This document shows, piece after piece, positions 7,474 to 61,114 of a stretch of DNA of 64,000 nucleotides. This stretch comes from Scenedesmus sp. PABB004 (lineage: Eukaryota): NCBI GenBank assembly GCA_014905635.1, contig JABVCE010000007.1:1426001-1490000 (forward strand). The letters run 5' to 3'. Both the position numbers and the translations under genes were made by a program. A model generated the notes under the pieces. The model ran no database searches and was not told the origin of the DNA. It worked only from the letters and a program-made list of their open reading frames with translations. Every line of letters starts with the position of its first letter. The first letter of the stretch is position 1.

Positions 7474-8841
7474 CTACTCCTGCTCCCGCGCCTGCGCCGG
7501 CTGCGGCCTGCCGCCGCCGCCGCCGCCGCCGGCACCCTTGGGCGGCGGCCGCCACGTGAGCGCGCGCGGCGGCGACCCGCCGCGCCGCGCGCCGCGCTCG
7601 CCGCGCTCGCCGCCGCCGGCCCGCTCGCCGCCCTCGTCGCCGCCGCCGTCCGCGCCGTCGCCGCTGCCATCACCACCGCCGCCGCCGCCGCCGCCGGCGC
7701 CGCGGTCGTCCATGTCCTTCAGGCTCAGGCGCACAAAGCCCTTTGCGTCGCGGCCCTTGCACAGCACGTCGAGCTCCTGGCCCTCCGCCACGACGTCGCG
7801 CGCCTCCCGGATCTTGGCGTGGCTCAGCTCGCTCACGTGCAGCAGCGCGGGCAGGCCGTTGGGCAGCGCCACGTACGCACCAAAGTCGACGACGCGCAGC
7901 ACGCGCACGCGGTACACCTGCGCCGGGCGCTGCTCAGTCGGACGGCGCGCGCCGCGGGAGCCACGCCCTCTCCCCGGCCCCCGCGGCGCCGCGGCGCGCG
8001 CGGCCGCAGCGCGCGGCGCGCGGCGAGGCGCAGGGCGCGCGGCCGCAGCGCACCTGGCCGGCCACGAGGCCGCGGCCCTCGACCTCGCCGACCGCCGCGA
8101 GCGCGTGCGCGTAGGCCGCGCCGCTGGGCGCGTAGATCGTGACGCCGCCGCCGTCGTCCACCAGCAGCGCCGCGCCGCACGCGTCTTCAATCTCAGCCAG
8201 CGTCGAGCCCTGCCGGGCGGGGGGAGGGGCGGCGCGCGGCGCGCCGTGCTCGCTCCCACTCCGCGCACGCAGAGGCACATACGAGCGCGCACGCGCGCCG
8301 CATCCCACCTGGGGTCCGATGAGGCGGGGGACCAGCTCCTTCATGATCTCCACGCTGCCGTGCTGCGGCGCCTCGCCGGGCCCGAGCCCCGCCTCAAACG
8401 CACCCGCCGCGGCGCCCATGGCGCGCAGCAGCGCCGCGCGCGCGGCGGCCGCGGGGCGCAGCGCCGCCGCGAGCAGCGAGAGGTCCACGCCCGGCAGCTT
8501 GGTGTCGAGCTGCGCTGCGGTGATGCCGGCCGACGTGCCCGCGACCTGGCGGCGGCGGCGGCGGTGGCGGCGCGGGCGCGGGGCGCGCGCAGCCTCGGTC
8601 GCCGCCGCAGCGCGCCGCATGTGGCGCCCGCGGCGGCCTGCCAGGGCGGTGCAGCTGGCCGAGTGCGCTGCTGCGCGCTCCCACATGCCCATACCGCGCC
8701 CACAGTCACCTTGAAGTCCATGTCCCCCAGGTGGTCCTCAATGCCCTGAATGTCGCCCAGCAGCAGCGCCGCGCCGTAGCTGCTCGGCAGCGGCCCGCCG
8801 CCGGCACCGGCGCCGGCGTCGCTGCTGGCGGCTTCGCTGGC

Positions 8842-8911
<70 letters not shown>

Positions 8912-12509: not shown

Positions 12510-14875
12510 ATGGCGGCAGCCCTGCGCGCAGGCACCATGCTCGGCACCGGCGCCCTCGCGGCCCGCCCGGCGCAGGTGCGGGGTGCGGCGTGCCGCCGGC
12601 GTGCCGCCGGCATCGGGGAGGGGCGCCTGCCCGGGCGCGCGGGCCCAACGGCGCGGCGCCCCGCCCCGGCCCCCGGATCACATCGCAGAGGCTGGCGCTG
12701 CGCCCGCTGGGCCCCGCGCCCGTCGGCGGCCGGCGTGTGGCGCGGGTGCCCCAGTTCGAGCAGCCCCAGCTCGCGCCCGTGGTCGTCAAGGCTGCCGGCG
12801 ACGCGGCCGCGGGCAAGGAGCTCGACCCGCTCGAGACGTGAGCCCCCGCGCGCGCCCGCGCGGCCCGGCGGCCCGGAGGGCCCCAGCGTCGCGCCCCCGC
12901 ACCCGCCGGCGGCGCGCGGCGCCGCGATCGCGCGGGCGCCGCCGCGGCGCGGCGCGCGCCGAAGAGGCCGGCGCGCGCCGCTGCTGCCGCGGCCGCCGAC
13001 GCGCCGCGCGCCCGCCCCCGCCGCCTGCCGCGCAGCGCCGTGTCCAAGGTCGTCGGCGCGGAGAAGGCCCCCGCGGTCGTGACGCTCGGCTTCATCGCGC
13101 TCTGGTGCGCGCCTTCCCGCAGCCGCGGCCGCAGCCCCCGCCCGTCCCTCCGCACCCCCGCCCTTTCCCCTCTCCCGCGCCTCCTCTCACGCCGCCCCTC
13201 TGCCCTCCCCTCTCCCCGCCAGGTACGCGCTGAACGTGTACTTCAACCTTCTCAACAAGAGCATCTTCAAGTACTTCCCCTTCCCATACACCGTGTCGAC
13301 CGTCCACGTCGTCGTCGGCACCGCCTACTGCGCGCTCGTGTACGTGCTCGGCCTCAAGTCCTGGTCCTTCGGCCGGGTGAGCCACGCGGGGGGCCTCGCA
13401 CGCGCAGCGCCGCACGCCGGCGGCGGCGGCGGCGCGGCGCGCAGCGCCCCGCCGGCAGCGCCCGCGCCAACGCCGCCGCCCGCTCGCTCGCCCGCGGCGC
13501 CGCGTCGTGTGCAGGCGATCAGCAAGGCCGAGTTTGGCAAGATCTTTGGCCCCGCCACGATGCACGCGGTCGGGCACATCGCGGCCAACATCTCCTTTGC
13601 CGCCGTCGCGATCAGCCTCACGCACACGGTCAAGACCCTGGAGCCGGCCTTCAACGTCATCCTCAGCCGGTGCGCCACCCAGCACCCGCCCGCCGCGGCG
13701 GCGCCGGCAGCCGGGCACAGCAGCGACAGCAGCAGCTGCGACGGCGCCAGCAGCGGCAGCGGCGGCAGCAGCAGCCGCGGGCGGGCGCGGCCGCGCGGGC
13801 GCGCCGCCGGGCCAGCAGCGCCGGCGGCAGCTGCGCCCGCGAGGGGGGCCAGCGGCGGCGCCCGCTGGGCGGCGCGCCGCTTGCCTCACCGCCGCCGCCG
13901 CCGCGGCCTAAAAAACCCTTGAACCGCGCCGCCGCAGCCTGATCCTGGGCGAGGCGACGCCGCTGCCGGTGATGCTGTCGCTCATCCCCATCATGGCGGG
14001 CGTGGGCCTGGCGAGCGCGGGCGAGCTGAGCTTCAACTGGACCGGTTTCATCTCGGCGATGCTCTCCAACCTCACCTTCGGCTTCCGCGCCGTCTGGGGC
14101 AAGGCGTGAGTGCCGCGCGCCGCGGCGCGCGCGCGACCCCGTCCGCCGGCCGGCCCGCGCGCGCCGCCCGCGTCCCCTGCTGCCGCGCCGCCGCCCGCTA
14201 CTCGACCGCTGCCCAAACCCTAAACCCTAAACCCTGCACGTGTGCGCCGCCCCGTGCCCCTGCAGCGCGATGACCAAGACGCTGGACAGCACCGCGGTGT
14301 ACGCGTACACGACGCTCATCAGCGCCATCGTGTGCGTGCCCATCGCGCTCGGCATGGAGGGCGGCCTGCTGCAGGCCGGCGCGGCGGCGGCCATCCAGAA
14401 GGTGCGCGCCGCACCGCGCGCTCCCGCTCCCTCTCCCTCTCCCTCTCCACCCGCTCCTCCCTCTCCGCCCTCCCTCCCTCCCTCGCACGCGCGCGCACAC
14501 TCGCTCGCTCACCACCACTCACTTGACCGCGCACCCACGATGCACATCCACGCCCGCTCTCTCCCCCCGCAGGTCGGCGAGGCGCGCTTCTACGGCGACC
14601 TGTTCATGGTGGGCCTGCTGTACCACCTGTACAACCAGTTTGCCTTCAACACTCTGCAGCGCGTGAGCCCGGTCAGCCACGGCGTGTGCAACGTCGTCAA
14701 GCGCGTCGTCATCATCTTCAGCAGCGTCCTCTTCTTCAACCAGACGCTCACGCAGCAGGCGCTGGTCGGCACGGTCATCGCGCTCGCGGGGACGTGGCTC
14801 TACACAGACATGTCCTCCAAGCACAAGACGCGCAAGGCCGAGCCCGGCGGCGGCGGCAAGCCCGCCGCCGCGTGA
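12510..14875 (+). CDS. TPT: Plastid triose-phosphate/phosphate translocator
   Basis: Transit-peptide-like N-terminus; WYALNVYFNLLNK, THTVKTLEPAFN, GELSFNWTGF, YHLYNQ, VSPVSHGVCNVVKRV. Confidence 0.92.
14215..14235. repeat. Interstitial telomere-type repeat (AAACCCT)x3 in a TPT intron
   Basis: Exact sequence aaaccctaaaccctaaaccct. Confidence 0.85.
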
Positions 14876-21914: not shown

Positions 21915-23770
21915 TCACCGCTGGTCGAGCAGCCAGTCGGTCGCGTACTGGCGCTCCTCGTCGCGCAGCCAGGCGTTCAGGCACACGGTCATGGCCGGCT
22001 CGTCGCCCGCCGCGCGCCACTCGTCCAGCATCGCCGCCACGCGCCGGTGGCCGTGCGTCATGGCCGCCCACCAGTCCGCGCCCTGCGCCTCGCAGTAGTG
22101 CACCAGCAGCTGGCGCTCCAGCCAGTCCCGCCGCTTGTCGCCGCCCGCGCGCAGCATCCTCCAGTCCGCGGACGTCCGCAGCTCGACCGCCTCGGCACGC
22201 AGGCTCCTCTTGGGCGCGACGCCCCTGGGCAGGCCGCCCCGGGACTGCGTCGGGCGTAGGCGGCCCAACGCGGGCGCCGCCAGGCCGGCCCCGACCGCCG
22301 CCGCGGTCGACACAGAGGACAGCCTCGAGGGCCGAGTGAGGGGAATGGCGGCGGCGGCGGGCTCCATGGCGCTGTGCGGCGCGTCGCCCTCGGCCAGCGG
22401 CTCGCTGGCCTCGGGCACCGCGCCGGGGCTGGTGGCCGCTGCGTCGGCGTTGTCCTTGGTCGCGCCGGCTGCCTGCTGCGCCAGCGGCGGCGGCTGTGCG
22501 TGAGCTGGGGCAGCGGCGCGCGCGCAGGCGGAGGGCGCACGCGCCGCTGCGCGGCCGCGCAGGGCCGGCGGCGCCAGGCTGACGCGCGGGCGCGGGCGCG
22601 CTGCGGCGGCGCTGGTGCCAGCGCGCGCCGCTCCGGCCTCACCTGCAGCTCGGCGGCGCCAGAGCCGATGGCGGCGCTGGAGGCCTCGGCGCTGCAGGGG
22701 AAGCTCGTGGTGGCGGCGCGCCTGGCCGGCTTCTTGCGCTGCGTGTCGGCGCAGTCGCTGTCGAGGTCGTCGTTGTCGTGCCGCGCCGCCTTGGCGCTCG
22801 CCTGGGTGAGCTTGGCGTTGTCCTGCTGGAGGCGCGCGATGGTCTTGACGGCCAGCACGTAGTCGTTGGCGAGCGCGCCGCACCGGGCGCTGACGGCCGA
22901 CAGGGACTTGCGCGTGTCGGCGAGCCACGCGTTGCGCTTGGCCAGGCTGGCGCGCGTGGCGTCGTGCGCGGCGACGCGCACGGCGAGCGCCCTGCGCGCG
23001 TCGGCGAACTGGACGGCGAGCGACCTGGAGGCGGCGCCCTTGGCCTCGCAGCTGGCGGTGGCGGCGCGCAGCTGGTCGTCGAGCGCGCGCAGCAGCTCGC
23101 GCGCGTCGCGGACGCCGGCGGCGAGCTCCTGGTTGACGTCCGCGAGCTCGGCCTGGCCCTTCCAGGCGGCGACGAGGTCGGAGCGGAGCTGGCCGCGGTC
23201 CGCGGTGATGAAGGCGACGATGGTCTCGGCGTTGGCGGTCGTAGCGGCGTGGGCGGCCTTCTCGGCGGCGAGCTCGGCGCGCAGGCGCGCGTTGCTGTCG
23301 GTGGCCTCGAGCTGGCAGGCCGCGGAGCGCAGCCGGGAGAACGTGAGCTCCTGGCGCTCCGCGGCGAGGCCGGCGGCGAGGTGCTCGGCGTTGGCGGACG
23401 TGGCGGCGAGGTCGACGGCGAGGCGCTCGGCGTTGGCGGTCGTGGCGGCGTAGGAGGTCTTCAGGGCGAGGAGGGAGGTCTTCAGGGCGACGTTGGCGAG
23501 CTTCAGGGCGAGCACCTGCGAGCGGAAGGCGGCGGCGAGGAGCGCGAGCGCAAGAGAGACGCAGAGGCTGGCGCCGCGCGGCGCCCAGGCGGTCAGGAAG
23601 CAGAGAAGCGCGGCGCAGGCCGCGGCGGCGGCGGCGCGGCGGCCGAAGCCGGGCGCGCAGCGCAGCGGGCTCATGGCGGAGGCAGGGGGGGAGCAGGGGG
23701 GCACAGGGCAGGTTGCAGGGGGAGCTGGGCTTCCGGAGAAGTGGCTAGCAGGGGCGGGGGGGCCCTGCAT
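21915..23770 (-). CDS. Hypothetical membrane-anchored coiled-coil protein, two exons
   Basis: Strong codon bias. N-terminal hydrophobic segments precede an Ala/Leu heptad region with AATTANAE repeats, then an intron starting at about 22643 and a Trp-rich C-terminal domain. No family recognised. Confidence 0.6.
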
Positions 23771-24258
23771 TGCAGCGGAAAAGGACCGGAAGAGCAGCGG
23801 GCGCTGAGCGCCGCCGCGCGGCGCAGGGCCTGCCAGCTCCGCACGGGGGCGCCGTGGCGGTGTCGAGGAAGCGCGGGCGACTCCTGGCGCGGCGCGCCGT
23901 GGCGCTGCGCGGCTGGCCCCGCTGTTGCGGCTGGGCCGGCACAGCCCGCGCCCGCCGCCAGCGCCGATTCTCACACGCAGCCCGCCCAGACCGCGCCTGT
24001 GACTGTCGGGGCTGCCGCGCGCCCCGGCCGCGCCGGCCGCTGCCGTGCCGGGCCCGGTGCGCGCAGCGCGCAGCGCGCAGCGCCGGGCGCCAGGCTGTCA
24101 CGCGGGCGCGCGCGCCGAGCGCTGGACGAACGCTTATTCAACGAGTGAGCAAGCCTGGTCAAGCAGTGCCCTGCATGCGCGCACATCATCATCACATGCA
24201 GCCGCCCGCGCCGCCGCCCCCCTCCCCGCACACCCGCCCGGCCGCGCCGCGCTGCTGC

Positions 24259-27200
24259 TCACGCCAGGGCCTGCAGCATGTTAGCCAGCCCCGGCAGCCG
24301 CGCCGCGCCGCTGGCGCGCCGGCGCGCGACCCGCTCCTGCGCGCGCGCGAGCAGGCCCTCGCCCTCCTCTGCCACGGCGGCGATCTTGCGCTTGAAGCCG
24401 GCCGCCTTCTTCTCGGCGTGCGCCTGCACCTCCTGCGCGCAGCGGCGGCGGGCGGGAGCGGCGGGCGGGAGCGGCGGGCGGGAGCGGCGGGCGGGAGCGG
24501 CGGCGGTGGTGAGGAGGGGAGCGGGGGGCGCTGCGTGGGCCTGGCGCCGCCGCCGCCGCCTGCGCGCACGGCACGCCCGCGCGCCCGCCTGGCGCGGCGC
24601 GCGCTCTGCGTGCCGCGCCGCCGCACCTCCTTGGTGGCCTCGAGCTGCGCAAACGTGTCTGCGTAGTCACCCCACGCCGCTTCGAACTGCTGCTGGAACT
24701 GCGCGGTCAGGCCGGTGATGCGCGCCATGCGGCCCTCCAGCGCCGTGCCCAGCGCCGACACGCGCGCGGCGCCCGCCGTCGCGAGCTTGGACATCTCGGC
24801 CTGCACCCGGGGCAGGCGGGGCACAGGGCGCCCGCCGCGCGGTGAGCGTGGTGCGCGGTGCAGGCCGGGCGCGCGCACACGGCCGCGGCGCGCCGCCGCG
24901 CCTGCATGCTGGACTCCAGGTCGGCGACGCGCGCGGCCATGGCCGCTTCCACCTCCTGCGTGTGGCGGCCGGGCGGCAGGGGTCCGCAGGGGCGCGGCGG
25001 CCGGCGGCGGGCGCGCGCGGGCGGGCTGCGCGGGCGCGGCGCCGCGGCGGCGCGGGGGCGCACCCGCAGGTGCGCCTCCTGCTTGAGCTTGTCCTGCTGG
25101 CGCTTGTGCAGCAGCGTGCGCACGAGCGCGGCCTGCAGCATCTCCACGTCGGCATCGTACCTGCGCAGCGCAGCGGGCGGCGCCCACACACTGCAGCCTC
25201 TGCGGCGGCGGCGCCAGCGGCGGCAACGCGCGGCACGCTGGCGGGCGGGCGCACCCGTCGTCGTCGTCGCCGTCGCCGCCCTCGTCGTCGCCGTCCTTGA
25301 GCGCGCTGGTCAGCAGCTGCGCAACGGCGGCGATGTCCGCCGCCGTGCCGGCCTGGCTCTCGGGCAGCGCGCCCAGCCCGCCGCCGCCGCCGCCGCCCAG
25401 CTCCGCGGCGCTCAGTCCGCCCAGGCTCGCCCAGCCCGACAGGCGCAGCTGGTCTTCGTCTGACTCGGCGGGCAGCGTGGTGGCGCGCCGCGCCCCGCCG
25501 CCGCGGCCGGCCTTGCCGCCGGCCCCCCGCTTGCCGCCTTTGCCCAGCGAGAGGCCGGCCAGGGCGCCCGCGCCGCTCCCCAGGCTGCCCAGGCTGCTGA
25601 GGGCTGGCAGGCGCAGCCCGCCCGCGCCGCCCGCCGCCTTGCGCTGCTTGCGCGCGAGCACAGGCGCGCCGGCGTCGACGTCGGCAGCGACAGCAGCCGC
25701 AGCGGCAACCGCCGCTGCGCTGGCACCGAGCTGGCTGCCGCCGAGCTGCAGCGAGGGCAGCTTGCGCACGAGCGCGGCCCCGCCGCGCGCCGCGGGCTTG
25801 TCGGCCGCTGCAGTGAGTGGCAGCTTGCGCACGATGCGGGCGGTGGTGATCTGCAGACCACAGTGGCGCGTGGGTGGGGCGGGGCGAGGTGAGGCGTGGC
25901 GGACAGCGGCGCGGCGCGGCGCGGCGCGGCTCAGCGCAGCGGCGCTGCCCGGCCAGCTCTGACGCGCACCCGCGCCGTCTCGGGCGTCACGTCCGCCGCC
26001 GCCAGGCCCACGCCGGTGCGCGGCGCACCCGTGGCCTGCGTGCGCGGCGCCAGCAGGCGCGTGAGGCGCAGCGCGCCGCCGTCGCCGTCGCCGACGCCGC
26101 CCTCGTCGCTGGAGCCGCCTGCGGCGGCGGCAGAGCGGGGTGGCGGCGGTGGCGGCCCTCCCCACGCGACTCGCAGCGGCCGCGCCGCGCGGCCCAGGCA
26201 GCCGCCACCCACCAGGCTCGTCGTGCTCGCCCTCCAGGCCGCCTGCCTCCTCGTCGTCGGCGGCGCCCAGGCCCGACGGGCCCTCCTCCTCCTCCTGCTC
26301 CTCCTGGTCGGGCGGCGGCGCCGCGGCGCGCGACAGGCCGCGCTGGCGCTCAGCGGTCGCGGGCGTGAGGTTGAGCGCCTGCTGGGTGTTGAGCTCCAGC
26401 TGCTGGTGCATCGCCTCCATCGCCTGGGCAGCGGCGGCAGCGGCGCGCGTCGGCGGGCCACGCGTCGGTGCGGGGCGGGGGCGGGCGGGGGCGGGCGGGG
26501 GCGGGCGGGGGCGGGCGGGGGCGGGCGGGGGCGGGCGCCAGCTGCGCGCGGTCGGCGCCCGCGCCTCGCCCACACCTTGGTGCGCGCAGCGCGCGCGGGC
26601 CTGCGGCCCTCGCGCTCCGCCGCCGGCGCCGCCGCGCCCGCCGGCTGGCTCTTGCTGCCGCCCGCCTTGGCGCCGGCCTTGGCAGCGCCCCGCGGCGGCG
26701 CCGCGCCGGGCCCGCCGCCCTCGTCGCCTCTGACGGCGGCCGCGGCCGCGGCGGCGGCCTTGCTGGCCTGGCCCGCGCCGCGCGGCAGCTTGGCGGGCGG
26801 CTCCTCGTCCTCGTCCGACGCGTGCAGCTGCCCGGCTGCCTCGGCGTCAGAGCCCGCGCCGTGCTCCCCGGCCATCTGCAGCGTGTCCGGCACCACCTCC
26901 TGCGCCTCCTCCTCCTCCACGGCCGCCGCCTGCTCCTGCGCCTCCTGCTCGGCGGCCGCGGCCGCGGCCTTGCGCCTGGCGGCGGCCGAGCCGGCCGCCG
27001 CGGGCTTGGCGGCGGCGGGCTTGCCGCCGCCGCCGCCCGCGCCGCGCCCGCCGCGCTTGGCGGCGGCGCCGCGGCCACGCTTGGCGCCGCGGCCGCGGGC
27101 AAACTCCTCGTCGCTGCCGCTGCCGCTGCCGCTGCTGGGCTCGCTGCCGGTCGAGCCAGAGGGCTCAAAGTCGAACTGGCTGGCGCCCTGGGGCCCGGCG

Positions 27201-30200
27201 GGCTTGGCCGCGCCGCCCGCGCCGCCCTTGGCGCCGGCCACGCCGGCCGCGCCAGCCGCGCCGCCCTTGGCGCCCTTGGCGCCCGGCTTGGCGGCGACGC
27301 CGGGGAACGAAAAGTCTGCCGCGTGGCCGCCCACCGCGCGCTCCGCGGCCGCGCCGCGGGCCTTGCGGCCGCCCGGGCCCTTGCCGCTGGGCTCCTCCGA
27401 GGCGGCGCCCTCCTCGCCGTCCGCGCCCACGGCGCCGCCGCCGTCGCCGGGCTTGCCGCCGCCGGCCTGCTGCATGCCGGCAAACCGCCCGCGCCGCGCC
27501 GACAGCGGGCGGCCGCCCGCGCCGGGCGTGTCGGCGGCGAGGCTGCGCGGCTTGGGGCTGGCGCCCGGCGAGCCGGGGCTGCCAGCGGCCGTGCCGTGGC
27601 CGCCCGCGGCCGCGCCCTTGTGGCGCAAGAAGGGCGTGGTGGCGCCGTGGTGGCCCGCGCCGCCCGCGGCCGAGGGCGGCGGTGGTGAGGTCATCCAGCT
27701 GGGCAGGTCGGCCGGCGCCTCGCCGGCGGCGGCGCCCCCGCCCACGCCCACGCGCGCCGACGCGGCGGTGGCGAGCTTGGGCAGGGAGGGCTGGTCGGGG
27801 TCCTCAATGTTCTCCTGCGTCTCGCCGCGCCGCCCGCCGCCCAGCTGGTTGCTCGCGATGGCCGCCGCCGCTGCCGCGGCGGCCTTGCGGCCGCGTGTGG
27901 CGCGCGGCGCGGGCGGCGCGGGCGGCGCGCCGGCCTGCGGCATGCGCGCGGGGCGGCGGGCGGCGGGCGTGAGGCGGCGCGACCGCCAGGCGCTGCCATC
28001 CATGCGGCGGCGCCGAGCGCGCCCGCCCCGCGCGCGCGGCTCGACCTGCTGCTTGGCGGCGGCCGCCTTGCTGCCCTTGCCACCAGGCGCCTTGTCGCCG
28101 CGAGGCGCCGCTCGCGCGCGGCGCTCTCCCTCGCCGTCAGAGGTCGCCTTCAGCTCGCCGGGCGCGGCCGTGGGCCCGCCCGCCGCGTCGCCGCCTGGCG
28201 CCGCCTCCTGCTCGTCGCGGGGCGCCTGCGCTGCGCCGCCGTCGACGGCGCCGCGCCCGCCGCGCGGGCCGGGCGGCGCCGCGAGCGCTGCCGCGTCCTC
28301 GAGCGAGCCCAGGCTGGTGGCGCCGCCCTTGGGGGCGGCGGCCATGTGCTGGTCCGCCACGCTGTCCAGCACCGCCAGCAGCTGGGAGTCGGTGCGGCCC
28401 TGCGTGCCCACCGCGCCAGCGGGCGGCGGCGAGGGCCCGCGGGGCGGGGAGCCCGGCGGTGAGGCGCCCGCGCCGGGCTCGCCCGCTGCGCGCGCCGGGC
28501 CGGCCGGCGGCGCTGGCGCGGCGCCGGGCGTCTCCGCCGCCAGGCGGCTCTTCTGGAGCGTGAGCTGCTGCATCTGCTGCGCAGCGCGGCCCGGGGAGTC
28601 GGCCGGGTGCGCGGCAAGCGGCGTGCGGGACGTGGTCTTGGCGAGGGGCCCGCCGGCAGGGCGCGCGTGCGTTGGCGTGGGGGTGGTCTTCTGCAGGGCC
28701 AGGGGCGGCTTGTGGTAGGCGGCGGGCATGTTGCCCCTGCGGGTGACGCGGCGGCGGCGGCCGCCGCGTGGGTGCCGGCAGCGGCGCTGGCGGCGGCCCC
28801 GCGGCGGCGGCGGCCGTGGCGGCGGCAGGTGCTGCTCCCGCGCCGTCGGCGGCAGCGCGCTCACATGGAGACCTTGCGCTGCTTGCGCTCCGCCTGGGAG
28901 GGCTCGTGCACGTTGGCGCTCACGCTCACCAGCACCACGCCCTGCGGCGCCGCGGGCGCGCGGCGGCGGCGCTCGGCGCCCGGACCGCCGGCGCGGGGCG
29001 CTGCGGCGGACGCAGCATGGCAGGCGTCAACAGACGCACAGCCACACACTCCCTCCCCCGCGCACCGCGGAGCGCAGCAGGGCGACGAGCGTGTTGCTGT
29101 CGGCCTCGCGCAGCACGAGACCGAGGGCGAAGGGCGTGCGGCTGTCGCCGCGCGCCAGCGCCGCCGCGGCGTCGGCGATGTCGGGGCCGAGGCAGGGCGG
29201 GAACGCCCTGCGCGGCGCGGCGGCGGCAGCCAGACGCGGGTCACGCGCTGGCGGGGGGGGGGGCACCACGAGCGCGCAAAGGCGCGGGGGCTCGGCGCGT
29301 GCGCGCACGCACTTGCACTGCAGCTCCAGCAGCATGCAGCCGACCCAGGCGGGCTGGTGCGTGGTGGTCGCGTGCGTGACGACCACGCGCGCCAGGTTGC
29401 CATACTCAACGTCCAGCACCTCCAGCGAGTCCTCCTCCTCCCCCTCCGCGCCGCCCTTGCCCTGCAGGGCCGCGCCGGCGGGCACGGCGCGCGGGCGGCG
29501 GCAGGTCCGCGGCCGCGGCGACGCGCGCGCTGCGGCGGCGTCGGCGGCCGGCGCGGCGCCCCCAGCCGCCCCCCGTGGCCGCGCACCGCGCCGCCGCCGG
29601 CCACGAGCACGGTGACGCTGAGGTGGGACGGCCCCAGCGCGACCGACGTGCTCTCCGGGCGCACGATGGCCGGGCAGGAGACCTTGACGAGGCGCGGCTC
29701 CAGCAGCACCACGCTGCGGCCGCGGCGGCCGGCGACGGTCTGGCAGGGGGCACGCGGCGCGGGCGCGCGGCGCGCCGGCGGCGTCGGCGGCGTCGGCGCC
29801 GCGCCCTCACCTGGCGGCGGCGCCCAGGCGGGCGTTGAACGCGGCCGCGAGGGCGGTCAGCTCGCCGACGAGGTCCAGGTCAGCGCCGTCCTTGGCCAGC
29901 AGCTGCGCCACCAGGCCCCGCATCTGCGCGGCACGGGTGCGGCGCGCGTCGCCACGCGGCGGCGGCGGTGCCGCCGCTCCCAGGCCGCACACGCCGCGGT
30001 GCGGCGCGGCGCGGCGCGGGCGGCGCCCCGCGCGGCGCGGCTGACCGGTGCGTCGAGGCTGCGGCCGTACGCCGCGTCGCCCCAGCGCTTGGCGAGGCGG
30101 AAGATGATCTCAAACACATCCAGCTGCGCACACACGACGCGGCGGCGGCGGCGGCGGCGGCGGCGGTGGGGCGCGGCGGGCCGGCACGGCGCGGCGCGGC

Positions 30201-31693
30201 GGGCGCGGCTCGGCGCGGCGCGATCCTGCTGCTCCCGGCCGCGCCTGCGTGGGCTGGTCGCCGCAGCCCTGCAGCACCGCGCCGACGAGGCAGGCGTAGC
30301 CCTGCGCCTGCTCCTGCAGCAGCCGCCGCTGGTTGGGGCGGCAGTCGCTGATGAGCTCGCGCAGCGCGGACACCGCGGAGCGGCGCAGGCTGTAGTAGGT
30401 CGCGCTCAGCCTGCGCGCGCGCGCGGCCCCGCCGGCGGCCTCGGCGGCGGCGGCCGCAGCTGCGCGGCCGCACGCGGGCAGCGCGGCGCCAGAGGGGGTG
30501 GCCCCTGGCAGGGCAGCGCGGCGGCGCGGCGGCGCGCGCCTGCCGTCCATAGTGGCGAGGGCGAGCAGGGGCACCAGCAGCGCCTCGCCGCACGCCTGCC
30601 GGCCGGACGCTTCGGTCTTCACCGCGCTCGCCTGCGACGCCGCGCCTGCGCCGCGCGCGGCCGCCGCCGCGGCAGCGCACGCGTCGGCCACGCGCGCTGC
30701 GCGCCGGGCCGCTGGCGGGGCCGCCGGCGGGGCCGCGCCGCGCGCCCCCGCACCTGGCAGCTGGCTGGCGGCGGTGCGCACAACCGGGAAGGTGTACTCA
30801 GCCAGGTCCATGACCGCGCCCAGCACGTTGCGCCCGCACGCGATCGCCGCGCCCGGGACCCTGCACGCGCGCTCGCCCTGCGACGCGCCGGCGGGGGCCT
30901 CGTGCTGCGTGGCGCGGCGGGCGGCGGCGGGTATGCTTGCGCCGCCGGCCAGAGCGCGCCGCTGCAGACGGCCGTGGGCGAGGCGCCGCGCGGCGCGCGC
31001 GCACCGCCTCTGCCACGCGGCGCAGCGTGTCGACGGCGCCCGCGAGCGCCGCGAGCAGCTCGCTGTTGTAGAGCAGGTGCTGCGCGAGGCGGTGCCTGCA
31101 GCAGCGGTGGCGGCGCGCGGCGCGGCGTGCTCTCAACGGCACGCCCCCGGCAGGGCCGGCCGCGCTGTCTGTCGCCCAGCGCCGCCGCGCGTCGGCCCGG
31201 CGCCGCACCCGGCCGTGCGTGGTATGAGCGTCATGAGCCGGTCCAGCAGCGTGAGCGCACCCACCAGCGCCTCGTCGCCGCCCGCCGCCGCGCCGGCGCC
31301 GGCGCCCGTGAGCGCGGCGGCGCAGCCGGCGCACGCGGCGCGCACGCGCGCGATGAGGCCGTCGCGCGCGGCCGCGCGGCTCAGCAGTCGCGCGCGCTTG
31401 TCGTCGTCCGCTTGCTCGTCCCAGGCCGCGAGGTCCTCGCACAGCGCCGCCGCGGGGCGGCCGGCGAGGTCGGGCAGCGCCTCCTGCGGGAGCAGGTGCG
31501 GCGTGTGTCGAATGTCCCGGGGCTACCGCCGGGCCGGGCCGCCGCACACCCCCCGCGGCCACGCGCTGCCGCCGGGCGCCGCGCTGCGCGCGCTGCCGCG
31601 CCGCCGCTGCTGCGCCCGCCGCGCCGCGCCGCCGGGCGCCTGGGGGCCGCAGCGGCCTCTCACCGCTAGGTTGGGGACCTTGGGGCGCGTCAT
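24259..31693 (-). CDS. SYCP2/Red1/Rec10-like meiotic axis core protein (ARM-like + PH-like + putative closure motif + disordered linker + C-terminal coiled coil)
   Basis: GCGDQPTQ|LDVFEIIFRL and FNARLGAAA-VVLLEP resemble SYCP2 ARM/PH-junction motifs. RKQRKVSM follows the beta-rich domain. Intron 28864-28737 (AT|G) joins the N-terminal region in frame to the long low-complexity exon. The helical coiled-coil C-terminus ends LANMLQALA-stop. Confidence 0.7.
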
Positions 31694-32317
31694 GGCGCCA
31701 CAGGGCGGCCGTGCGCCCGCGCGTGGGGCCGCAGCGGGCGCTCGAGCGATGGCGCCCCCGCCCGTGCCGAGCCGGGCGCGCACGGGGCTGTGCCGCCGGG
31801 AGCGCCCACAGATCCGTCAGCCGGGGTGACCGGGCTCGCCGCTGGCCCGCCACGCAGCGCGTGCGACGCGCAGCAGCAGCGCGCGCGGCCCCTGCTGCGT
31901 CAGTGCGCGCTGGCCCGGCTCGGGCGCCGCGGCAGCGCGGGCGTGCGCCACGTGTGTCGCCGGGGCGGCTGGGGCGCGCTGCCACAGCGGGGTCGAAAAG
32001 TCGAAGGCGCGTAACCCCAGAGCAAGCTCGATTCAGCGAGAACGCCGCCGCCTGTGTCAGAGGGCACGCACGGATCACCTGCGCCCGCCCCGCGGCCCCG
32101 CACCGCCTGCCGCCGCCCCACGGCAGCGCGCGCTGGCGGCCGCCGACAGCGGCGCGCCGCGCGCAGCCCCTGCCGCCCGCCTGTCTCGCCAGCGCAGGCC
32201 GTGGACCGGGCGCACCTTCTGCCGCGGCGCCGGAGCGGCGCCGCGGCGCCGACCCCGCCCGGCGCGGCGGGAAGGGCCCGCGGCAGCGCCGCGCGTTGAC
32301 CTCGCGGCCCCGGCGCG

Positions 32318-35300
32318 ATGGCGATGGAGGTGGTCGCCGTCGTGCCCGGCGCCCACGAGGACAGCCTGGTGGCCATCGCCTACAACCGTGCCAAGCGCGA
32401 GGCCTACACGGCGGCGGAGGGGGACCGCGCGATCAAGGCGCGCCGCGGCAGCTGCCGCGGCGCGCTGGCCGCCGCGCGCTCTGCGGCGGCGCGCCCGCCG
32501 CCGGCGCGCCGCCAATCCGCCGCCGCTGCTGCCGCCGCCGCCGCCGCCGCAGGTGTGGGACGTCAAGACCGGCGCGCGGCTGCGCAGCCAGGTGGCGCAC
32601 CGGGGCATGGTCACGTCACTCGCCTACGCTGGCGGCGCGCGCCTGCTCTTCAGCGGCTCCATCGACGGCGCGATCGGCGTCTGGACCGACAAGGGCACGC
32701 TGCTGCAGGTGCGGTGGTCTGCCCAGAGGCGCGGCGCGGCGGCCGCGGCCGCGCGGCCGCGCGGGCGCGCACGCGGGCGAACGCCCTCCGCCGCCGCCGC
32801 CGCTGCCGCCGCCGCCACCGCTGCGCAGCTCGTGCCGACGGGCTGGCCGGTGTTCAGCCTCGCGTGGGGCGCGAGGCAGCGCGTGCTGGCGGCGGGCGGC
32901 AACAGCGTGCTGCACGTCTTCAAGGCGCGGCGGCTGCAGAGGGGGGGGGGAGGACCAGGGCGCCCGGCGGCCGCGGCGCGGCCGCCACGGCCGACGCGCC
33001 CGCGCGCGTGTGCTGCAGGTGGACGCGGCGGACGTGCTGCGCCTCAAGCACGCGCGCCACGCGGCGCAGCCCACCACGCGCCAGCAGGCGCAGGCGGCGC
33101 AGCAGGACGGCGGTGGCGGCGGCGGCGCCGGCGGCGCCGGCGTGCTCGCCGGGGGCGGCGCCGACGCGCGGCAGGTCCTGCGGCGTGTGTGCCCGGCGCT
33201 CAAGGGCTGGAAGCAGCCTGCGGCCCCCGGCAGCGAGGCGCCGGAGAGGAAGGTGAGCGCGGTGCCCGCGGGCTGGCGCTGCGTAGTGGCGGCTGGCTGA
33301 GCCGCGGCGCGCTCGCAGGAGGGAGGTGGCGGAGTGACGGGGGAGCTGGACGAGGAGCCGCCAGCAGACGCGGCGGCCGAGCAGGCGGGCGAGCAGCCGG
33401 ATGCGGCAGCGGGGGCGGGCAGCGCGTGCGGCGAGTGCGCGTCGGAGGCGGCCGCCAGCAGCAGCGCCGGCAGCAGGCGGCGCGCCAAGGCCGGCCCCGC
33501 GCGGGGGGCGCGGGGGTGTGGCGGGGCCGGCGCGGGCGGGGCGGCGGTGGGCCGCCAGCGCGAAGAGGAGTACTACGGTGTGTGCCACAGCGACGTGGTC
33601 AAGTGCATCGCCATCACGGACAGCGGCAAGATCTTCACCGCTGGGTGCGGCGCGCTGGACTGCCGGGCGCACTGGCGCGCGGGGTCCGGCGCCGCGCGGC
33701 GGCTGGCGGCCGCGGGCGCTGGCCGCGTGCGCCGCGCCACCCGCGCGCTGGGCGTCGTCTCGGCGCGCGCCGCAGCTTTGACCGTGCCATCTGCTGCTAC
33801 GACTCTGACAAGCTGGACAAGCCGCGCGAGGCGTTCCGCCGCGTGCGCGACGCCGCGCGCGGGGGGCTGACCAGCCTCGTCTTCGACCCCCACAACAACG
33901 TGCTGCTCGTGGGCAGCGGCGACGGCGCGCTGCGCATCTGGAGCGTGGAGGGCAGGTGCGGCGGCGGGCGGGCTGGCTGCCGCCGGCAGCAGCAGCGCGC
34001 GCGCGGCGCGTCTGCCGGCGGCTGCTCGGCCGCGCCGCCAGCCGCCGCGTCGGCTCTGCGACCGCCCCGCTCCCCGCGCCGCGCAGGTGCCTCGACAAGT
34101 TTGAGGGCCTGTCCAACAAGCCCATCAGCGTCGCGCACCTGCCGCAGCTCAACACCTGGTGGGCCACCGGCCGCGCCGGCCGCGTCGCAGCGCTTGACCC
34201 GCGCGCGCCGGCGGTCATCACGGACTGCGTGGCCGCGCCCAACGCGCTGCTGGTGCGGCGCCGGCGGCGGCGAGGTCGGGCCGCAGTCGAGCTGAGCTGG
34301 ACTCGGCTGACCTGAGCGATGACGGCGCCTGTGCGCCCGCCGCCGCCGCTGCCGCCACGCGTGGCAGGAGCACTGCGTCGAGCTGCTGCACGCGCCGCCC
34401 GGCAGCGACCTGGTGCTGGCGGGCACGGCGGACCGCAAGCTGGTGGTGTGGCAGTACAACGCGCACGCCGCGCACCGCGTGTTTGGCGGCCACGCCGACT
34501 GGGTGGAGGGCGTGGCCGTGGTGGCGCGCGGGCGCGACCCCTTTGACCAGGCCTTCTTCTCCTTCTCAGCCGACGGCCACGTCGTCGGCTGGGAGCTCGA
34601 CGCGGAGCAAAACTGCGACGTCTACCGCCGCGTGGTGCGCCACCGGGGGGCTCCGGGGAGCCGGGGGGCGGCGCCGCCGCCGCGCCCGACCTCAGGGCCC
34701 TGGCGCCCGGCGCGGCGCAGCGCGGCGCGCCGAGCACGAACCAACGGGCGGCCGCCCACCCCGCGCCGCCGCTGCGCAGGAGGACGTGGCGCTGGCGCCG
34801 TGCAACGTGCTGTGCCTGTTGCACCTGCCCGAGCGCCACGCGCTGGTGGCTGGCTGCGAGGACGGCACGATCCGCCTGCACTGCCTCGACGGCGCGCCGC
34901 CGGCGGCCAGCCCCGACGGCGGCGCGCTGCCGTCCGTGCTGGCCGGGCACGACGGCAAGGTCACCGGCCTCGCCGCGCTGCCGGGGGGGCTGCTGCTGAG
35001 CGCGGGCGACGACCGCAGCCTGCGCGTGTGGGACCTGGCCACGATGAAGCAGCTGCACGTGCGAGCGCGGCGGCCGCGCAGGCTGGCTGGCCGGCTGGCC
35101 GGCTGGTGGGGCCCACCAGTGGCTCCGCCTGCGCGCCCCGCAGGCGGAGCTGGACGCGCACAGCAGCTCGATCCAGTGCCTGGAGCACGTCCCCGGCCGC
35201 CGGGAGGTGGCGACCTGCGGCATGGGGGCAAAGGTCAAGGTCTGGTCGCTGGCGCGCCCGACGGCGCCGCGCCTGGCGCTGGTGCTGGACCACGGCGACC

Positions 35301-36860
35301 CCGCCACGCGGCCGGCGTCGCCCGCCGCCGACGTCAGCCGCGCGCGCGGCAAGAGCAACATGCGCTGGCTCACGCGCTCCGACGTCGACGGCGGCGGCGC
35401 CAAGGCGGCCGCCGGCCTGCCGGCCATCGTGGCGGAGGCCATCGCGCACGCGCGGGAGGACGTGCCGGAGGCCACGCAGGCAGGCGGCGCCACTGCCGGG
35501 CGCGCGCCGGGACAGGGGGTTGGCGCGCCCGCGAGCCGCGCCGCCCGCCGCGCCGCCCGCCGCAGGTGCGCTGGGTCGCGCACCGTGAGGCCTGGGTCAC
35601 CGCGGCCGACGACGCGCTGCTGCGGCTGTGGAGCGCGGGTGGCGAGGCGCTCGGGAGCTTCGCGCTCAAGGGCGGCAGCTGCCGGTGCGGTGCGGCCGGC
35701 GGGCGCGGCCCGGGCCGGCCAAGGCCGGGGGTCGCTGGCGGGGCAGGGGCCGTCGGTGCGCTAGCCGCCGGCGGCGGGCGGGCGGCCGCCCGGCCGCTGA
35801 CGCTGGCGCTGGGGCGCTGACCCTCGTGTGCGCAGCTGGCTGTTTGTGGACGACGCCAACCGCGTGCTGCTCGCGGCGACCGCCGACAAGTGCGCCTACC
35901 TCTACGACCTCACACCAACCTCGCCCGCGCCTCTCGCGCGGTGCGGTGCGGGCGCCGCGCTGGCTGCGCGGCGGCCGCGTCCCGCGCGGCGGGCGGCGGG
36001 CGCGTCCCGCGCTCACACGCACGCGCGCGCCCCACCCCGCACGCGCCGCCGCCGCGTCACCGCCGGCTGCAGGCTGGCGGGCCACGGCGACGTCGTGAGC
36101 GGCGCGGGGTACCTGCCGGCGCTGGACGCCTACATCACCAGCAGCTGGGACGGCACGCTGCGCGTGTGGCGCAGGCCCGCCGCCGCCGGCGCGGGCGGCG
36201 CTGGCGACGCCGGTGGCGGCGGCGCCGGGGAGCCGGGCCTGCAGCTGGAGGTCAGTGAGGAGGGGCCGGGCGGCGGCGGCGGCGGCGAGTACGAGAGGGC
36301 GCACCCGCTGGTGGCGCCGGCGGCGCTCGGGCAGGTGCGCACGCGGGCGGGGCGGGGGTGGGGCGCGCGCACGGGCGGGGCGCGCGCGGCCGGACCGTGA
36401 GCGCGCGGCGCCCGCCGGGACGCAGGACCACACGCTGGCGCTGCTGCGGGCGATAGGCGCGGCGGACGAGGCGCCGACCGGCCGGCCCGGCGCCGCGAGG
36501 CGCGGCGGCCGCGGCGGCGGCGGTGGCGTCGCGCGCGGCGCGCGCGAGGGCCGGCCGAGCGACGACGGCTCGGCGTCGTGCGCGGCCGAGCCGGCCGACG
36601 ACGCGCCGGGCAGCCTGGGCGCGAGGCTGGAGGAGCTGGGGCGGCGGCTGCTGGCGGACATCAACCACGACGCCCGCGGCGCGGCCGAGCGGGGCGCCGG
36701 CGGCTGGGGCGGTGCCGGCCCCGCGCCGCAGCCGGCAGCGGCGGCGGCAGCGGCGGCGCTGAAGCGCAGCGCCAGCACGCGCAGCAGAGCGCTCGGCGCG
36801 GGCGCGGCCGAGGCGCGGCTGCGGGGGGGCGGCGGCGCGGGCGGGCGCGGCGAGCGGTGA
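32318..36860 (+). CDS. Large WD40-repeat protein, multi-exon
   Basis: Many GH..WD repeats: AIK|VWDV, LFSGSIDGAIGVW, GSGDGALRIW, GHADWV, GHDGKVT..SAGDDRSLRVWD, GHGDVV..ITSSWDGTLRVW. Confidence 0.88.
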
Positions 36861-37157
36861 GCCTGCGGAGCCAGGGCGCCCTCGAGATCGGCTCGGGTGC
36901 CAAGGGGCTGCGCCCCGCGCCCTGTGAGCGAGCGTGCAGGCCCACGGACGCGAATTGGGGGAGCGCCGGCGCCCGAGGCGGCGCTGCCCAAACCGCAGCG
37001 ATTAGCGATAGCCGCCGCCGCCTGCATCCCTGCATAAAGGCCGCCCGTCCGCTCAGCGCCACCACCAGGGACCGCACGCCGCAGCTGCCCCGCGCGCCGC
37101 CGCCGCCCCACGCGTGCGCCGCCGCCGCTGCCGCGCTCGCCGCTGCGCCGCGCCACG

Positions 37158-37780
37158 ATGCGCCCCGCCGCCATGCCCACGCTGCTCCTGCTCGCCCTGG
37201 CCTGCGGCCTGGCCGCGGTGGCGCCCGCCGCCGACGCGGCGCGCGCGCCCGGCTCCAGCGTCGCGCGGAAGCTGCTCGACATCTTCAACAACGACGGTGA
37301 TCAGCAGCGGGGGCACGCCGCGGCAGGCAGCAGCTGCACAGGCACGCTGCAGCCTGCGCGCAGCGCCGCCCACGCCCACGCCGCCGCGCGCCGCCGCCGC
37401 GCGCTGCCACCGCAGCCGCGTTTGCCCAGGCGCGCGCGGCCGCAGCCGCCCAGACCACCGCCGTCGGCGGCGGCGGCGGCCTCGGCTGCGTCGGCTGCGT
37501 CGGCGGCGGCCTCGGCGGCGTCGGCAACGGCATCGGCGGAGGCGGCGCCGACTGCCAGGCCGCCGCGCAGGCGTACGCGAGCTCCGGCGCGCGCTCCAAC
37601 GGCCTCGGCGGCTTTGGCGGCGGCGCCGCGGACGCCTTTGCCGCCGCGCGCGCTGCCGCCGACGCGCGCGGCGCCGCGTTTGGCAGCGACGCGTGGCGCA
37701 ACGACTTCCTCTCCGCCTGCCGCGCGTCGGCTGCGGCGTCCGCCGAGTCCGGCAGCTTCAACGCGGGGCTCGGCAAGTGA
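37158..37780 (+). CDS. Small secreted Gly/Ala-rich protein or propeptide (intron 37297-37445)
   Basis: Signal peptide (LLLLALACGLAAVAPAADA) and RKLL motif. A phase-1 GT-AG intron leads to GGGGLGCVGCVGGG...FNAGLGK-stop. TATA-like CATAAA lies at about 37033. Confidence 0.65.
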
Positions 37781-38775: not shown

Positions 38776-40537
38776 ATGGCCCACCTGCTGTGGGCGCTGC
38801 TGGGCAACGGGATGAGCCCGGACATGGCAGCCGGCCTCGCCGGCGCCGCGGGCGTGCCGGAGAGCCCCAGCCTGGCCAGCGAGCACGGCGATGAAGGAGG
38901 CGCCGGGTGCAGCTGCAGGTGCGGGCGGGGAGGCAGCGGGCGCGCGCGGCCGGGCATCATCCCTCCGCCGGCCGGCCGCTCATCGCGCCCCTCGCGCCCC
39001 CGCGCCGCGCAGCAAGCCGGTGCAGCTGCTGCGCTCGCTGCACGTCGAGGGCCTGCCGCCCGCGATGACCGCGGCCGAGCTGAGCCAGCTTTTCTCGCCC
39101 TACGGCCAAGTCCAGTACGCCGAGGTGCGCCCCACGCGCGGGGAGGGCAGCGGAGGCGGCCGCCAGGCGCCCGAGCGGGCGCTCGAGCTGCGCGGCGGCG
39201 GCAGCCGTGACGCCGCCGCGGCCAGGCCACAGCCCACCACCGCCCGGCCCGCCGCGCCCGGCAGGCCGCGCCCGAGGCGGTGAAGAACGAGGCGGGCGAG
39301 TACGCGCGCAAGCTGCACTGCTACGTCGTGTTCACCGAGCACGCGGGCGCGTGCTCGGCCAAGAAGGTCCTGCAGCCCCGCGCGCCCGACGGCGCCGGCG
39401 CCGGCGCCGGCGCGGCGAGCCGCGCGCCCGACGCGCTCCTGCGCGTGCGCTTCTGCAAGCCCGCCAACGTGGTGCCGCTGTGCACGCCCACGTTTCGCGG
39501 GTTCATCACGGCCCAGTGGGCGCAGTCGGCGGCGGCGGCCAAGGCCTGCCCCGACTACAAAAAGGCGTCGTGCAAGGTCAACGCGCTCTTCGTCAGCAAG
39601 CTGCACCAGCACATCACGACCGCGCGCCTCACGTCCCTGTTTGGGAAGTTTGGCAAGATGCTCGCGTGCGAGGTGCGGCGGCGTGCAGGCGGCAGGCAGA
39701 CGCGCCGCGCCGCGCCGCGCCGCGCCGCGCCGCGCGCCGGCCCCGCCGCGGCGCCGCCCGCCCACGCGCCCCGGCCGCCCGCCGCGCGCCCCGCCCGCCG
39801 CGCGGCCGCAGGTGCAGTACCACAGCGACGGGCGCAGCGCGGGGCACGGCGTGGTGATCTACGAGACGATCGAGGACGCCGAGGCGGCGCTGGCGGGGAC
39901 CAACGGGTACCGCCTGGAGGGGCGGACGATCGAGGTGACGCCGCTGCGGCTCAAGAAGCTGCCGAGCAAGCTGGAGCACCTCAAGGGCCGCATCAAGCGC
40001 CAGCCGCTCTCCGGCGACGGCAGCGGCAGCGAGGACGGCAGCGGCAGCATCCCCGCGTGCAGCCCCAAGAGCCTGGTCGGCACGCCGCCCACGCCCGCGG
40101 CGGCGGCGGCCGCGCTCGGCCTGGGCCACCACCACCAGCAGCAGCACGCGGCGGCCGCGGCGGCGGCGCTGCACCTGCAGCAGGGCCTGATGCACGGCCT
40201 GCAGCTGCAGCAGCAGCAGCTCATGCTGCAGCAGGTGCAGCAGCAGATGGCCATGCAGATGCACATGATGCAGCCGCCCATGCCCTGCGGCATGGCCGCC
40301 GCCGCGGCGGCGGCGGCCGCCGCGGCCGCGATGGGCCCCGGCGGCGCGGGCATGGGCCACGGCGTGCGCCCGGGGCTGCTGCCGGGCGGCATGCACGCGC
40401 CGCCGATGCGCCCCGGCCCGCACGGCGGCCCGGGCGCCGGGCTCGGCGCCACGCCGCTCGGCCGCGACGGCCTGCCCCTCGCGCGGCCCGGCGGCGACGC
40501 GGTGCCGACGGGGCTGGACCTTTCGTTTATCTCCTAG
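38776..40537 (+). CDS. Two-RRM RNA-binding protein with His/Gln/Met-rich low-complexity tail
   Basis: LHVEGLP..ELSQLFSPYGQV..HCYVVF; LFVSKL..LFGKFG..GHGVVIYET..LNGYRLEGRTIEV-like second RRM. Confidence 0.85.

Positions 40538-59106: not shown

Positions 59107-61114
<2,008 letters not shown>

Follow-up and report, generated by a model that had tools for sequence, protein, structure and literature searches.

Proteins of the SYCP2 type, in which an ARM-PH head is combined with a C-terminal coiled coil, are reported from most eukaryotic supergroups, including Archaeplastida and Chlamydomonas (PMC8131943). The same study admits members to the class on the basis of a significant profile match to the final ARM repeats together with the PH domain, reached by iterative profile 'hopping', and names Marchantia polymorpha among the species leading the ARM-PH search path. 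It also describes a duplicated SYCP2-type ASY3 in Chlamydomonas reinhardtii. For chlorophytes, ASY3 has been reported as detected and ASY4 as not detected, ASY4 being recorded from streptophytes only (PMC9957857). That green algae keep a full-length SYCP2-type/ASY3 protein is already published in these two studies. Here we describe a gene at positions 24259–31693, on the minus strand, of a 64,000-nucleotide stretch of contig JABVCE010000007.1 from the green alga Scenedesmus sp. PABB004; this whole stretch is called the window below. The gene is real and intact. Sequence comparison indicates that the locus is likely to be one intact gene for an axis core protein of the SYCP2 type, to which SYCP2, Red1/Rec10 and ASY3 belong, and the gene is probably a new, very divergent member of this known class. 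Since a full-length SYCP2-type protein in green algae is already in print, the gain is incremental.

The described members of the class share a recognizable layout. In Red1 and SYCP2, a head is followed by a short motif, a disordered linker and a coiled coil (PMC6349405; bioRxiv 10.64898/2026.01.19.700424), with the closure motif placed immediately behind the head, at residues 346–362 of Red1 and 395–414 of SYCP2 (PMC6349405). Yeast Red1/Rec10 is described with an ARM-PH head (1–345), that closure motif and a disordered region carrying short essential motifs, one of them a cohesin-interacting motif; the coiled coil of Red1 is a C-terminal homotetramer in which the last residues drive filament formation. 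Mammalian SYCP2 is described with an ARM-like and PH-like (Spt16M-like) head, a closure motif after it, a long disordered middle and a C-terminal coiled coil, and it requires SYCP3 for a 2:2 tetramer. Arabidopsis thaliana ASY3, also an axis core protein, carries its closure motif close to the N-terminus and ends in a coiled coil; a motif of the LxxxLxxIL type in its disordered region binds REC8, and its residues L196/L200/I203/L204 are reported to bind the REC8 winged helix (bioRxiv 10.64898/2026.01.19.700424). It differs in being described without the ARM-PH head and in pairing with ASY4. An earlier sequence-only reading of the window had stated that land-plant ASY3 lacks this head, which is too broad, as the loss is placed in Spermatophyta (PMC8131943). 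In the brown alga Ectocarpus, ecRED1 was recognized as a Red1/SYCP2-type protein by its domain arrangement, with several candidate closure motifs, one of which was validated (PMC12678776).

Gene model and splice junctions

The window has a G+C content of about 80% throughout, and stop-to-stop open reading frames (ORFs) of hundreds of codons leave all six frames open across it. ORFs alone are therefore uninformative here, and genes were called instead from the codon-position signal, that is, G+C at third minus second codon positions (GC3 minus GC2), computed on the minus strand. By this measure, coding blocks extend along the minus strand from about 31690 to about 24260, and the frame changes between blocks, as it would between exons. 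A log-odds coding scan, for which codon usage was learned from the window itself, found 15 minus-strand segments of at least 40 codons inside 24259–31693; the plus strand of the same interval held only two, both weaker and beneath minus-strand segments. Splice-aware dynamic programming produced a model of 21 exons running from an ATG at 31693 to a TGA at 24261–24259. Curation against relatives, chiefly P0019, a gene model of 1,607 residues taken from a eukaryotic protein set, restored exon 20, the greater part of exon 5 and the end of exon 6 with GDQPTQ, all of which were absent from the dynamic-programming model. The curated gene comprises 22 exons, with 1,536 codons plus the stop and a frame that is open throughout; its extent is supported by periodicity, coding segments, dynamic programming and collinearity with P0019. 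A lower-GC patch containing AATAAG lies 60–130 nucleotides past the true stop. The polyadenylation signal TGTAA is no help for gene ends here, as it occurs merely five times in 64 kb, with no copy near the axis gene.

The head is encoded by the first twelve exons. Exon 1 (31664..31693, residues 1–10, donor GTGAGA) provides an N-terminus that aligns with the first residues of P0019. Exon 2 (31209..31483, residues 11–102), which belongs to the helical head, matches P0019 residues 9–97 by tblastn with 35% identity and has a periodicity of +0.40, and exon 3 (31005..31095, residues 102–132) is collinear with P0019 and periodic in its own frame (+0.48). The tblastn match of exon 4 (30754..30877, residues 133–174) starts from P0019 residue 127, and the acceptor of this exon was picked by length match to P0019. 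Exon 5 (30540..30645, residues 174–209) is conserved in P0001, P0005, P0018 and P0019 and its end reads AG|GCGCGC. The most conserved exon is exon 6 (30245..30410, residues 209–264), which ends in ...CGDQPTQ, followed by GCGCGG. Exon 7 (30046..30123, residues 265–290) starts with LDVFEIIFRL, at a junction seen in P0016, P0019, P0002 and P0017. Exon 8 (29811..29923, residues 291–328, donor GTGAGG) holds FNARLG at 29839–29822; it is spanned by P0016 and matches P0019 residues 285–324 by tblastn with 62.5% identity. With exon 9 (29587..29713, residues 328–370) the strand-rich part begins, as judged from strand propensity; this exon has a periodicity of +0.31 to +0.45 and a partial match to P0019 (...PSHLS...). 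Exon 10 (29313..29461, residues 371–420) reaches +0.57 and is collinear with P0019, as is the first half of exon 11 (29066..29207, residues 420–467; FPP.LGPD..), the second half of which is not in the P0019 model and has a periodicity of +0.37. Exon 12 (28865..28941, residues 468–493, periodicity +0.52) ends in RKQRKVSM, and this end aligns with R.V.[ML] of P0019.

Between exons 12 and 13 lies a phase 2 GT..AG intron of 128 nucleotides (28737..28864), with donor AT|GTGAGC and acceptor CCCGCAG|G in matching phase, which splits the codon of M493. The sequence-only reading had joined what looked like separate ORFs into one gene through exactly this intron; the curated model contains the same intron, and the residues on both sides of it are contiguous in P0019. 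The motifs named in that reading are likewise all present: the GDQPTQ/LDVFEIIFRL junction at residues 259–274 (30262..30094, across an intron), FNARLG, and RKQRKVSM at residues 486–493 (28887..28736, with the last codon split).

The linker is encoded by exons 13–18, the boundaries of which fall in low-complexity sequence, come from the dynamic-programming model only and are uncertain. Exon 13 (28046..28736, residues 493–723), called by dynamic programming and of disorder-like composition, has an uncertain 3′ boundary, and both boundaries of exon 14 (26735..27844, residues 724–1093), which contains a conserved ..FDFEPS.. island at 27193–27149, are uncertain. Exon 15 (26213..26423, residues 1094–1164) starts with a conserved AM.AMH.QL island and has a periodicity of +0.48 to +0.59. 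Exon 16 (25970..26118, residues 1164–1213) comes from the dynamic-programming model only and is weakly periodic. Exon 17 (25727..25850, residues 1214–1255) has at its start an island with 8 of 15 columns identical to P0019, and at the end of exon 18 (25255..25603, residues 1255–1371) there is a conserved DIA..AQL...L.D island as well as a run of acidic residues. The helical tail begins in exon 19 (25064..25160, residues 1371–1403), which is collinear with P0019 and has a periodicity of +0.53 to +0.60. Exon 20 (24902..24955, residues 1404–1421), a small coiled-coil exon followed by CAG|GCGCGG, was recognized because P0019 carries 18–19 extra residues there. Exons 21 (24627..24800, residues 1422–1479) and 22 (24259..24432, residues 1480–1536 plus the stop) complete the coiled coil; the latter encodes the conserved C-terminus (...LANMLQALA) and matches P0019 residues 1544–1604 by tblastn with 34% identity.

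Three introns of the axis gene begin with AG|GCGCG rather than GT, with donors at 30539–30538, 30244–30243 and 24901–24900 of the minus strand. The positions of these candidate GC donors were fixed by collinearity with relatives. An in-frame GT donor is also present 7–23 codons downstream of every one of them, so that GC-AG splicing at the three introns is likely but short of proof. The GDQPTQ junction, for example, requires either the GC donor at 30244–30243 or else a GT donor 19 codons downstream. In P0016 and P0019, ...CGD..TQ runs straight into VDLFEILYRC or VEALEVMYRC, and then into MRGL.AQLLAK; since both relatives read straight through, this junction and the next one are real exon joins. 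P0016, an ORF called in a transcript-assembly record, supports the GDQPTQ/LDVFEIIFRL junction at the mRNA level in a relative. P0002 and P0017 have the same exon 6/7 junction after an intron read-through. All 13 genomic fragments found by database search (see below) carry V (GTN) directly after TQ at the end of exon 6. In P0001, P0005 and P0018, an R followed by C or W past the end of exon 5 would fit donors of the AG|GTG or AG|TGG type.

The same type of junction (...AQQ|GCGCGC) occurs in the Lon protease gene of the window, near 52605 and 52465 on the minus strand, where the intron holds a (CA)n tract. GC-AG introns usually make up about 1% of all introns. If such junctions were general, this genome of about 80% G+C would have a far higher proportion of GC-AG introns than is usual.

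Protein layout, relatives and family assignment

The predicted protein consists of an ordered head, a long linker and a coiled-coil tail. According to composition, the ordered head comprises residues 1 to about 480. Crude propensities mark residues 1 to about 327 (exons 1–8) as helix-prone and assign about seven strand-prone stretches and two helices to residues 328 to about 480 (exons 9–12). The linker (residues ~480–1370) has low hydrophobicity, a Pro+Gly content of 20–55% and a disorder-like composition, within which ten islands of conservation are common to P0019. Apart from the islands discussed below as candidate motifs, these include islands at about residues 941–955, 1094–1109, 1214–1228 and 1344–1358. 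The tail (~1371–1536, about 165 residues) is poor in Pro and Gly, charged, and has heptad scores of 0.50–0.64 by a sequence heuristic. The order proposed by the sequence-only reading, helical, strand-rich, disordered and coiled-coil, is thus borne out by composition and propensities, with the correction that the linker measures about 880 residues in the curated model instead of about 1000. A structure prediction for the open piece 30110–31132 reached a mean predicted local distance difference test (pLDDT) value of 61.3 and a predicted template modelling (pTM) score of 0.38; exons 5–6 were helical at pLDDT 62–89 inside this poor model. Foldseek found no PDB entry at E ≤ 0.001 for it (best 0.65). 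Because the piece includes intron read-through, the lack of a Foldseek match is uninformative. A four-copy complex prediction for the P0019 tail (residues 1435–1607) scored 0.00 against a mark of 0.32, which is no evidence either way.

To find relatives, the same 340-codon open piece, which contains exons 4–6 plus read-through, was searched exhaustively with phmmer against 1.84 billion proteins. It turned out that 13 proteins matched at E ≤ 0.001, the best at 2.4e-12; in a library of this size, the conservation is therefore beyond chance. All 13 are short ORFs from genomic contigs, and all match over exon 6 (window positions 30410–30245). Within it, the columns Y, LRR, Q, Y, L, L, CGD and TQ do not vary. 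A profile search with exon 6 retrieved 14 proteins at E ≤ 0.1, with values down to 1.6e-24, and P0016 and P0019 were among them. Word-index protein searches with the 340-residue piece, whole, or with exon 6 alone returned nothing in the 596–2000 residue range, and pattern scans of metagenome contigs for related loci matched 165 and 37 sites, none of which was confirmed.

P0019 can be aligned with the window model from the first residues to the last, with 499 of 1,386 aligned positions identical. Identities amount to 34/95, 39/99 and 55/100 in stretches of the head and to 35/100 in the collinear tail, where both proteins end in ...LA.[ML]LQA.... With exon 20 included, the tail aligns to P0019 without gaps, according to a manual reading against an alignment made before this exon was added. 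The proposal that the whole locus is one gene holds up well in this comparison, as head, linker and coiled-coil tail are all collinear with P0019, including both sides of the intron at 28864–28737. One region of P0019 (residues ~325–430) is without about 50 residues of the strand-rich domain, which are strongly periodic in window exons 9, 11 and 12. This gap is probably a flaw of the public gene model, in which exons were skipped.

We next turn to the family. Language-model features of P0019 residues 1–450 were compared with those of protein clusters. Among named clusters, the nearest has SYCP2_SLD on 21% of its members (score 0.87, 177 shared features). It is followed by a Synaptonemal complex protein 2 cluster (0.86, 176 shared features), with SYCP2_SLD on 96% and SYCP2_ARLD on 71% of members, by a Rec10/Red1 cluster (0.85, 166 shared features), a Euglenozoan PH-like cluster (0.83) and a placozoan SYCP2-like cluster (0.78). 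Family or clan agreement extends to 8 of the 10 best family-bearing matches. These neighbors, together with the layout of head, post-head motif, disordered linker and coiled coil, are the grounds on which we assign the gene to the SYCP2 type.

Several results weigh against this assignment or limit it. None of eight window pieces matched any Pfam family at E ≤ 1, SYCP2_ARLD, SYCP2_SLD and Red1 included, and at E ≤ 10 P0019 and P0016 gave chance-level rows only, these three families again being absent. Nothing thus reached the gathering thresholds of SYCP2_ARLD (PF18581), SYCP2_SLD (PF18584) or Red1 (PF07964), which is why we file the gene as a probable member of the wider SYCP2-type class and not of the Pfam families. 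Among PDB sequences, no SYCP2 or Red1 chain was matched by single sequences or by the exon 6 profile. With Pfam and PDB sequence searches empty, the family link comes from a single method that does not use alignment. According to the calibration of that method, the observed pattern is typical of true membership, but the calibration was made on whole proteins and scores below 0.9 count as leads. Moreover, the list of matches is headed (0.95 and 0.91) by two clusters without a name, from Basidiomycota and Haptophyta. As P0019 in turn is a gene prediction, and a look-up of RNA evidence for 24200–31800 listed none, the single-gene status is a matter of sequence comparison, and, as the P0019 model is without about 50 residues, the strand-rich domain is defined by one sequence only. 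The SYCP2/Red1 identity suggested by the sequence-only reading is therefore backed by language-model neighbors and layout and finds no counterpart in Pfam or PDB sequence matches.

Could the protein be something else? The empty Pfam and PDB searches would also be expected of a lineage-specific nuclear or cytoskeletal scaffold without a meiotic function, whose likeness to SYCP2 and Red1 lies in general architecture. When window exons 4–6 are the query, general ARM/HEAT-type neighbors are the only ones found, among them the unrelated clusters RIH_assoc, DUF4704, TPR_SYO1, CFA69 and V-ATPase_H, and the published survey of the class warns of false relatives picked up through ARM repeats and coiled coils (PMC8131943). 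The whole head of P0019, however, converges on SYCP2, Red1/Rec10 and the Euglenozoan PH-like family and not on ARM proteins in general, with the 8 of 10 agreement given above. In addition, axis core proteins have the same succession of head, conserved motif, long linker and terminal coiled coil. We therefore regard such a scaffold as unlikely. An SYCP2-type paralogue put to some other use, for instance at the centromere or kinetochore as in kinetoplastid KKT17/KKT18, with the true axis gene elsewhere, is a good deal harder to credit. Duplications of SYCP2-type genes are recurrent, C. reinhardtii included (PMC8131943), and the Euglenozoan PH-like family is among the near clusters; on the other hand, conservation with P0019 extends over the head, the motif behind it, the linker islands and the tail, as canonical function predicts, and no feature suggests a new role.

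The remaining alternative concerns the number of genes. If the intron at 28864–28737 were not spliced, the frame would end just past M493, at the TGA at 28863–28861, and an ATG (~28730) lies 6 nucleotides into the next exon, so that the locus could be divided into a gene for a head protein of about 493 residues and an adjacent gene for a protein made of linker and coiled coil. Yet these two parts would be merely 128 nucleotides apart, and the interval between them has the ends of an intron (GTGAGC and CCCGCAG) in compatible phase. It is also as G+C-rich as the other introns and is without the lower-GC patch seen past the real stop. Above all, P0019 is collinear with both halves and reads R.V.[ML] and then GN[ML]PA.Y..HK.PL contiguously across the intron site. 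Two adjacent genes are accordingly very improbable, and we retain the reading of one intact gene for an SYCP2-type axis core protein.

Candidate motifs, proposed mechanism and comparison with known axis proteins

If the gene is an axis core gene, its linker should contain short conserved motifs. The best-conserved linker island (residues 494–505, with P0019 identical in 9 of 15 columns) immediately follows the head and, together with the end of exon 12, forms a conserved stretch at residues 486–505 (28700..28887, minus strand) that spans the intron. Its place, which is that of the Red1 and SYCP2 motifs, and the presence in it of the most conserved island of the linker make this stretch the likeliest candidate for a HORMA closure motif, a kind of motif for which there is no general consensus to score a sequence against. 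The sequence-only reading had placed a basic candidate, RKQRKVSM, here. Its R-x-V-x-[ML] pattern is conserved in P0019, together with the GN[ML]PA.Y..HK.PL that follows; the basic run RKQRK is not, P0019 having ESNSR instead. A second candidate lies in exon 13, where residues 607–619 (28358..28396, minus strand; ...SQLLAVLDSV) form an amphipathic segment with 8 of 15 columns identical to P0019. Its hydrophobic residues are at i, i+4, i+7 and i+8. Since this is the spacing of L196/L200/I203/L204 in ASY3, the segment may be a cohesin-interacting motif, a suggestion made by analogy.

Taken together, these features allow a mechanism to be proposed, in which the meiotic role and all binding steps are extrapolated from the class. 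In meiotic prophase, the head of about 480 residues, ARM-like and then PH-like, would anchor the protein on chromatin or cohesin. Residues 486–505 would act as a closure motif and recruit a HOP1/ASY1-type protein, and the amphipathic linker helix at 607–619 may bind a meiotic kleisin in the manner of the Red1 and ASY3 cohesin-interacting motifs. Oligomerization into the axis filament would fall to the coiled coil of some 165 residues, with its conserved last residues. Because ASY4 has been reported from streptophytes only (PMC9957857), the tail may form a Red1-like homo-oligomer or have a partner that has gone undetected.

Comparison with the known systems reveals both similarities and differences. 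Mammalian SYCP2 has the arrangement of domains that is predicted for the window protein, and its cluster is one of the named ones closest to the P0019 head, but SYCP2 has no detectable similarity to the window gene at the level of hidden Markov models. SYCP2 depends on SYCP3, whereas no partner is known for the window protein. Moreover, SYCP2 is described as not binding kleisin's C-terminal winged-helix domain, whereas the window protein has the ASY3-like amphipathic candidate motif. The Red1 cluster scored slightly lower against the P0019 head, as given above, and Red1 has the head, closure motif and disordered region predicted for the window protein; the conserved last residues of the window tail may correspond to those that drive filament formation in Red1. 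However, Red1 has 827 residues, half the length, and the window gene gave no Pfam Red1 match. With A. thaliana ASY3, the window protein would have in common the closure motif, the kleisin-binding motif and the C-terminal coiled coil, and it differs in possessing the head. The same layout is expected of the green-algal and bryophyte SYCP2-type ASY3 proteins (C. reinhardtii ASY3 I–II, M. polymorpha), which were compared by description only. This also applies to ecRED1, which is from a stramenopile and thus from an unrelated lineage.

Axis core proteins diverge fast and are consequently missed by standard annotation, and Pfam indeed finds nothing here. In the present case, the gene is in addition split over 22 exons that use three frames, and every frame of the genome is open. 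The curated model and its relatives therefore offer a handle for inventories of meiotic genes in green algae, and the two short candidate motifs, one after the head and one in the linker helix, bear on whether the joining of axis and cohesin known from plants and fungi reaches chlorophytes. A more far-reaching view, which we put forward with considerable doubt, is that this Pfam-invisible family is the chlorophyte axis core, with the ancestral ARM-PH head known from animals and fungi, a plant-type kleisin-binding motif and a self-sufficient coiled coil, and that its intact state marks a working meiotic axis. If true, this would mean a working axis in an alga possibly without a described sexual cycle. 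In any case, one intact meiotic gene would be weak evidence for cryptic sex.

Neighboring genes and other features of the window

A Pfam scan of the window showed that the neighbors of the axis gene are ordinary nuclear genes, none of them meiotic. About 600 nucleotides from its ATG, on the plus strand, is a divergently placed gene for a WD40 protein (32318–37777). On the other side, about 490 nucleotides past its stop and on the same strand, starts a gene (22058–23770, minus) that consists of a long coiled-coil ORF, rich in Ala and with a stretch of hydrophobic residues at the N-terminus; no Pfam family was found above threshold for it (CortBP2 at 0.00081 only). Farther away in this direction are genes for a member of the triose-phosphate/phosphate translocator family (13224–14860, plus) and for a PNPase-like protein with RNase_PH and S1 domains (7597–9426, minus). 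Beyond the WD40 gene, the plus strand encodes an RRM protein (39262–40531), a phosphatidylserine synthase (44661–44894) and a bHLH protein with a plant-type ACT-like domain (47505–48194), and the minus strand encodes the Lon protease mentioned above (49478–54506). The bHLH and translocator genes are in keeping with an origin in the green lineage, the broad lineage of the C. reinhardtii and M. polymorpha ASY3 proteins.

The end of the window is occupied by an inverted duplication (55568–57342 and 61438–63212) of 1,775 nucleotides, the arms of which are 99% complementary and 4,095 nucleotides apart. A further pair is located at 55321–55558 and 63230–63472. Each arm of the duplication has a coding segment with a RING finger and an IQ motif (56521–57021 on the minus strand, by Pfam), and the spacer between the arms contains a ribosomal protein L1 gene (57445–58641, plus) and a minus-strand gene (59193–61078).

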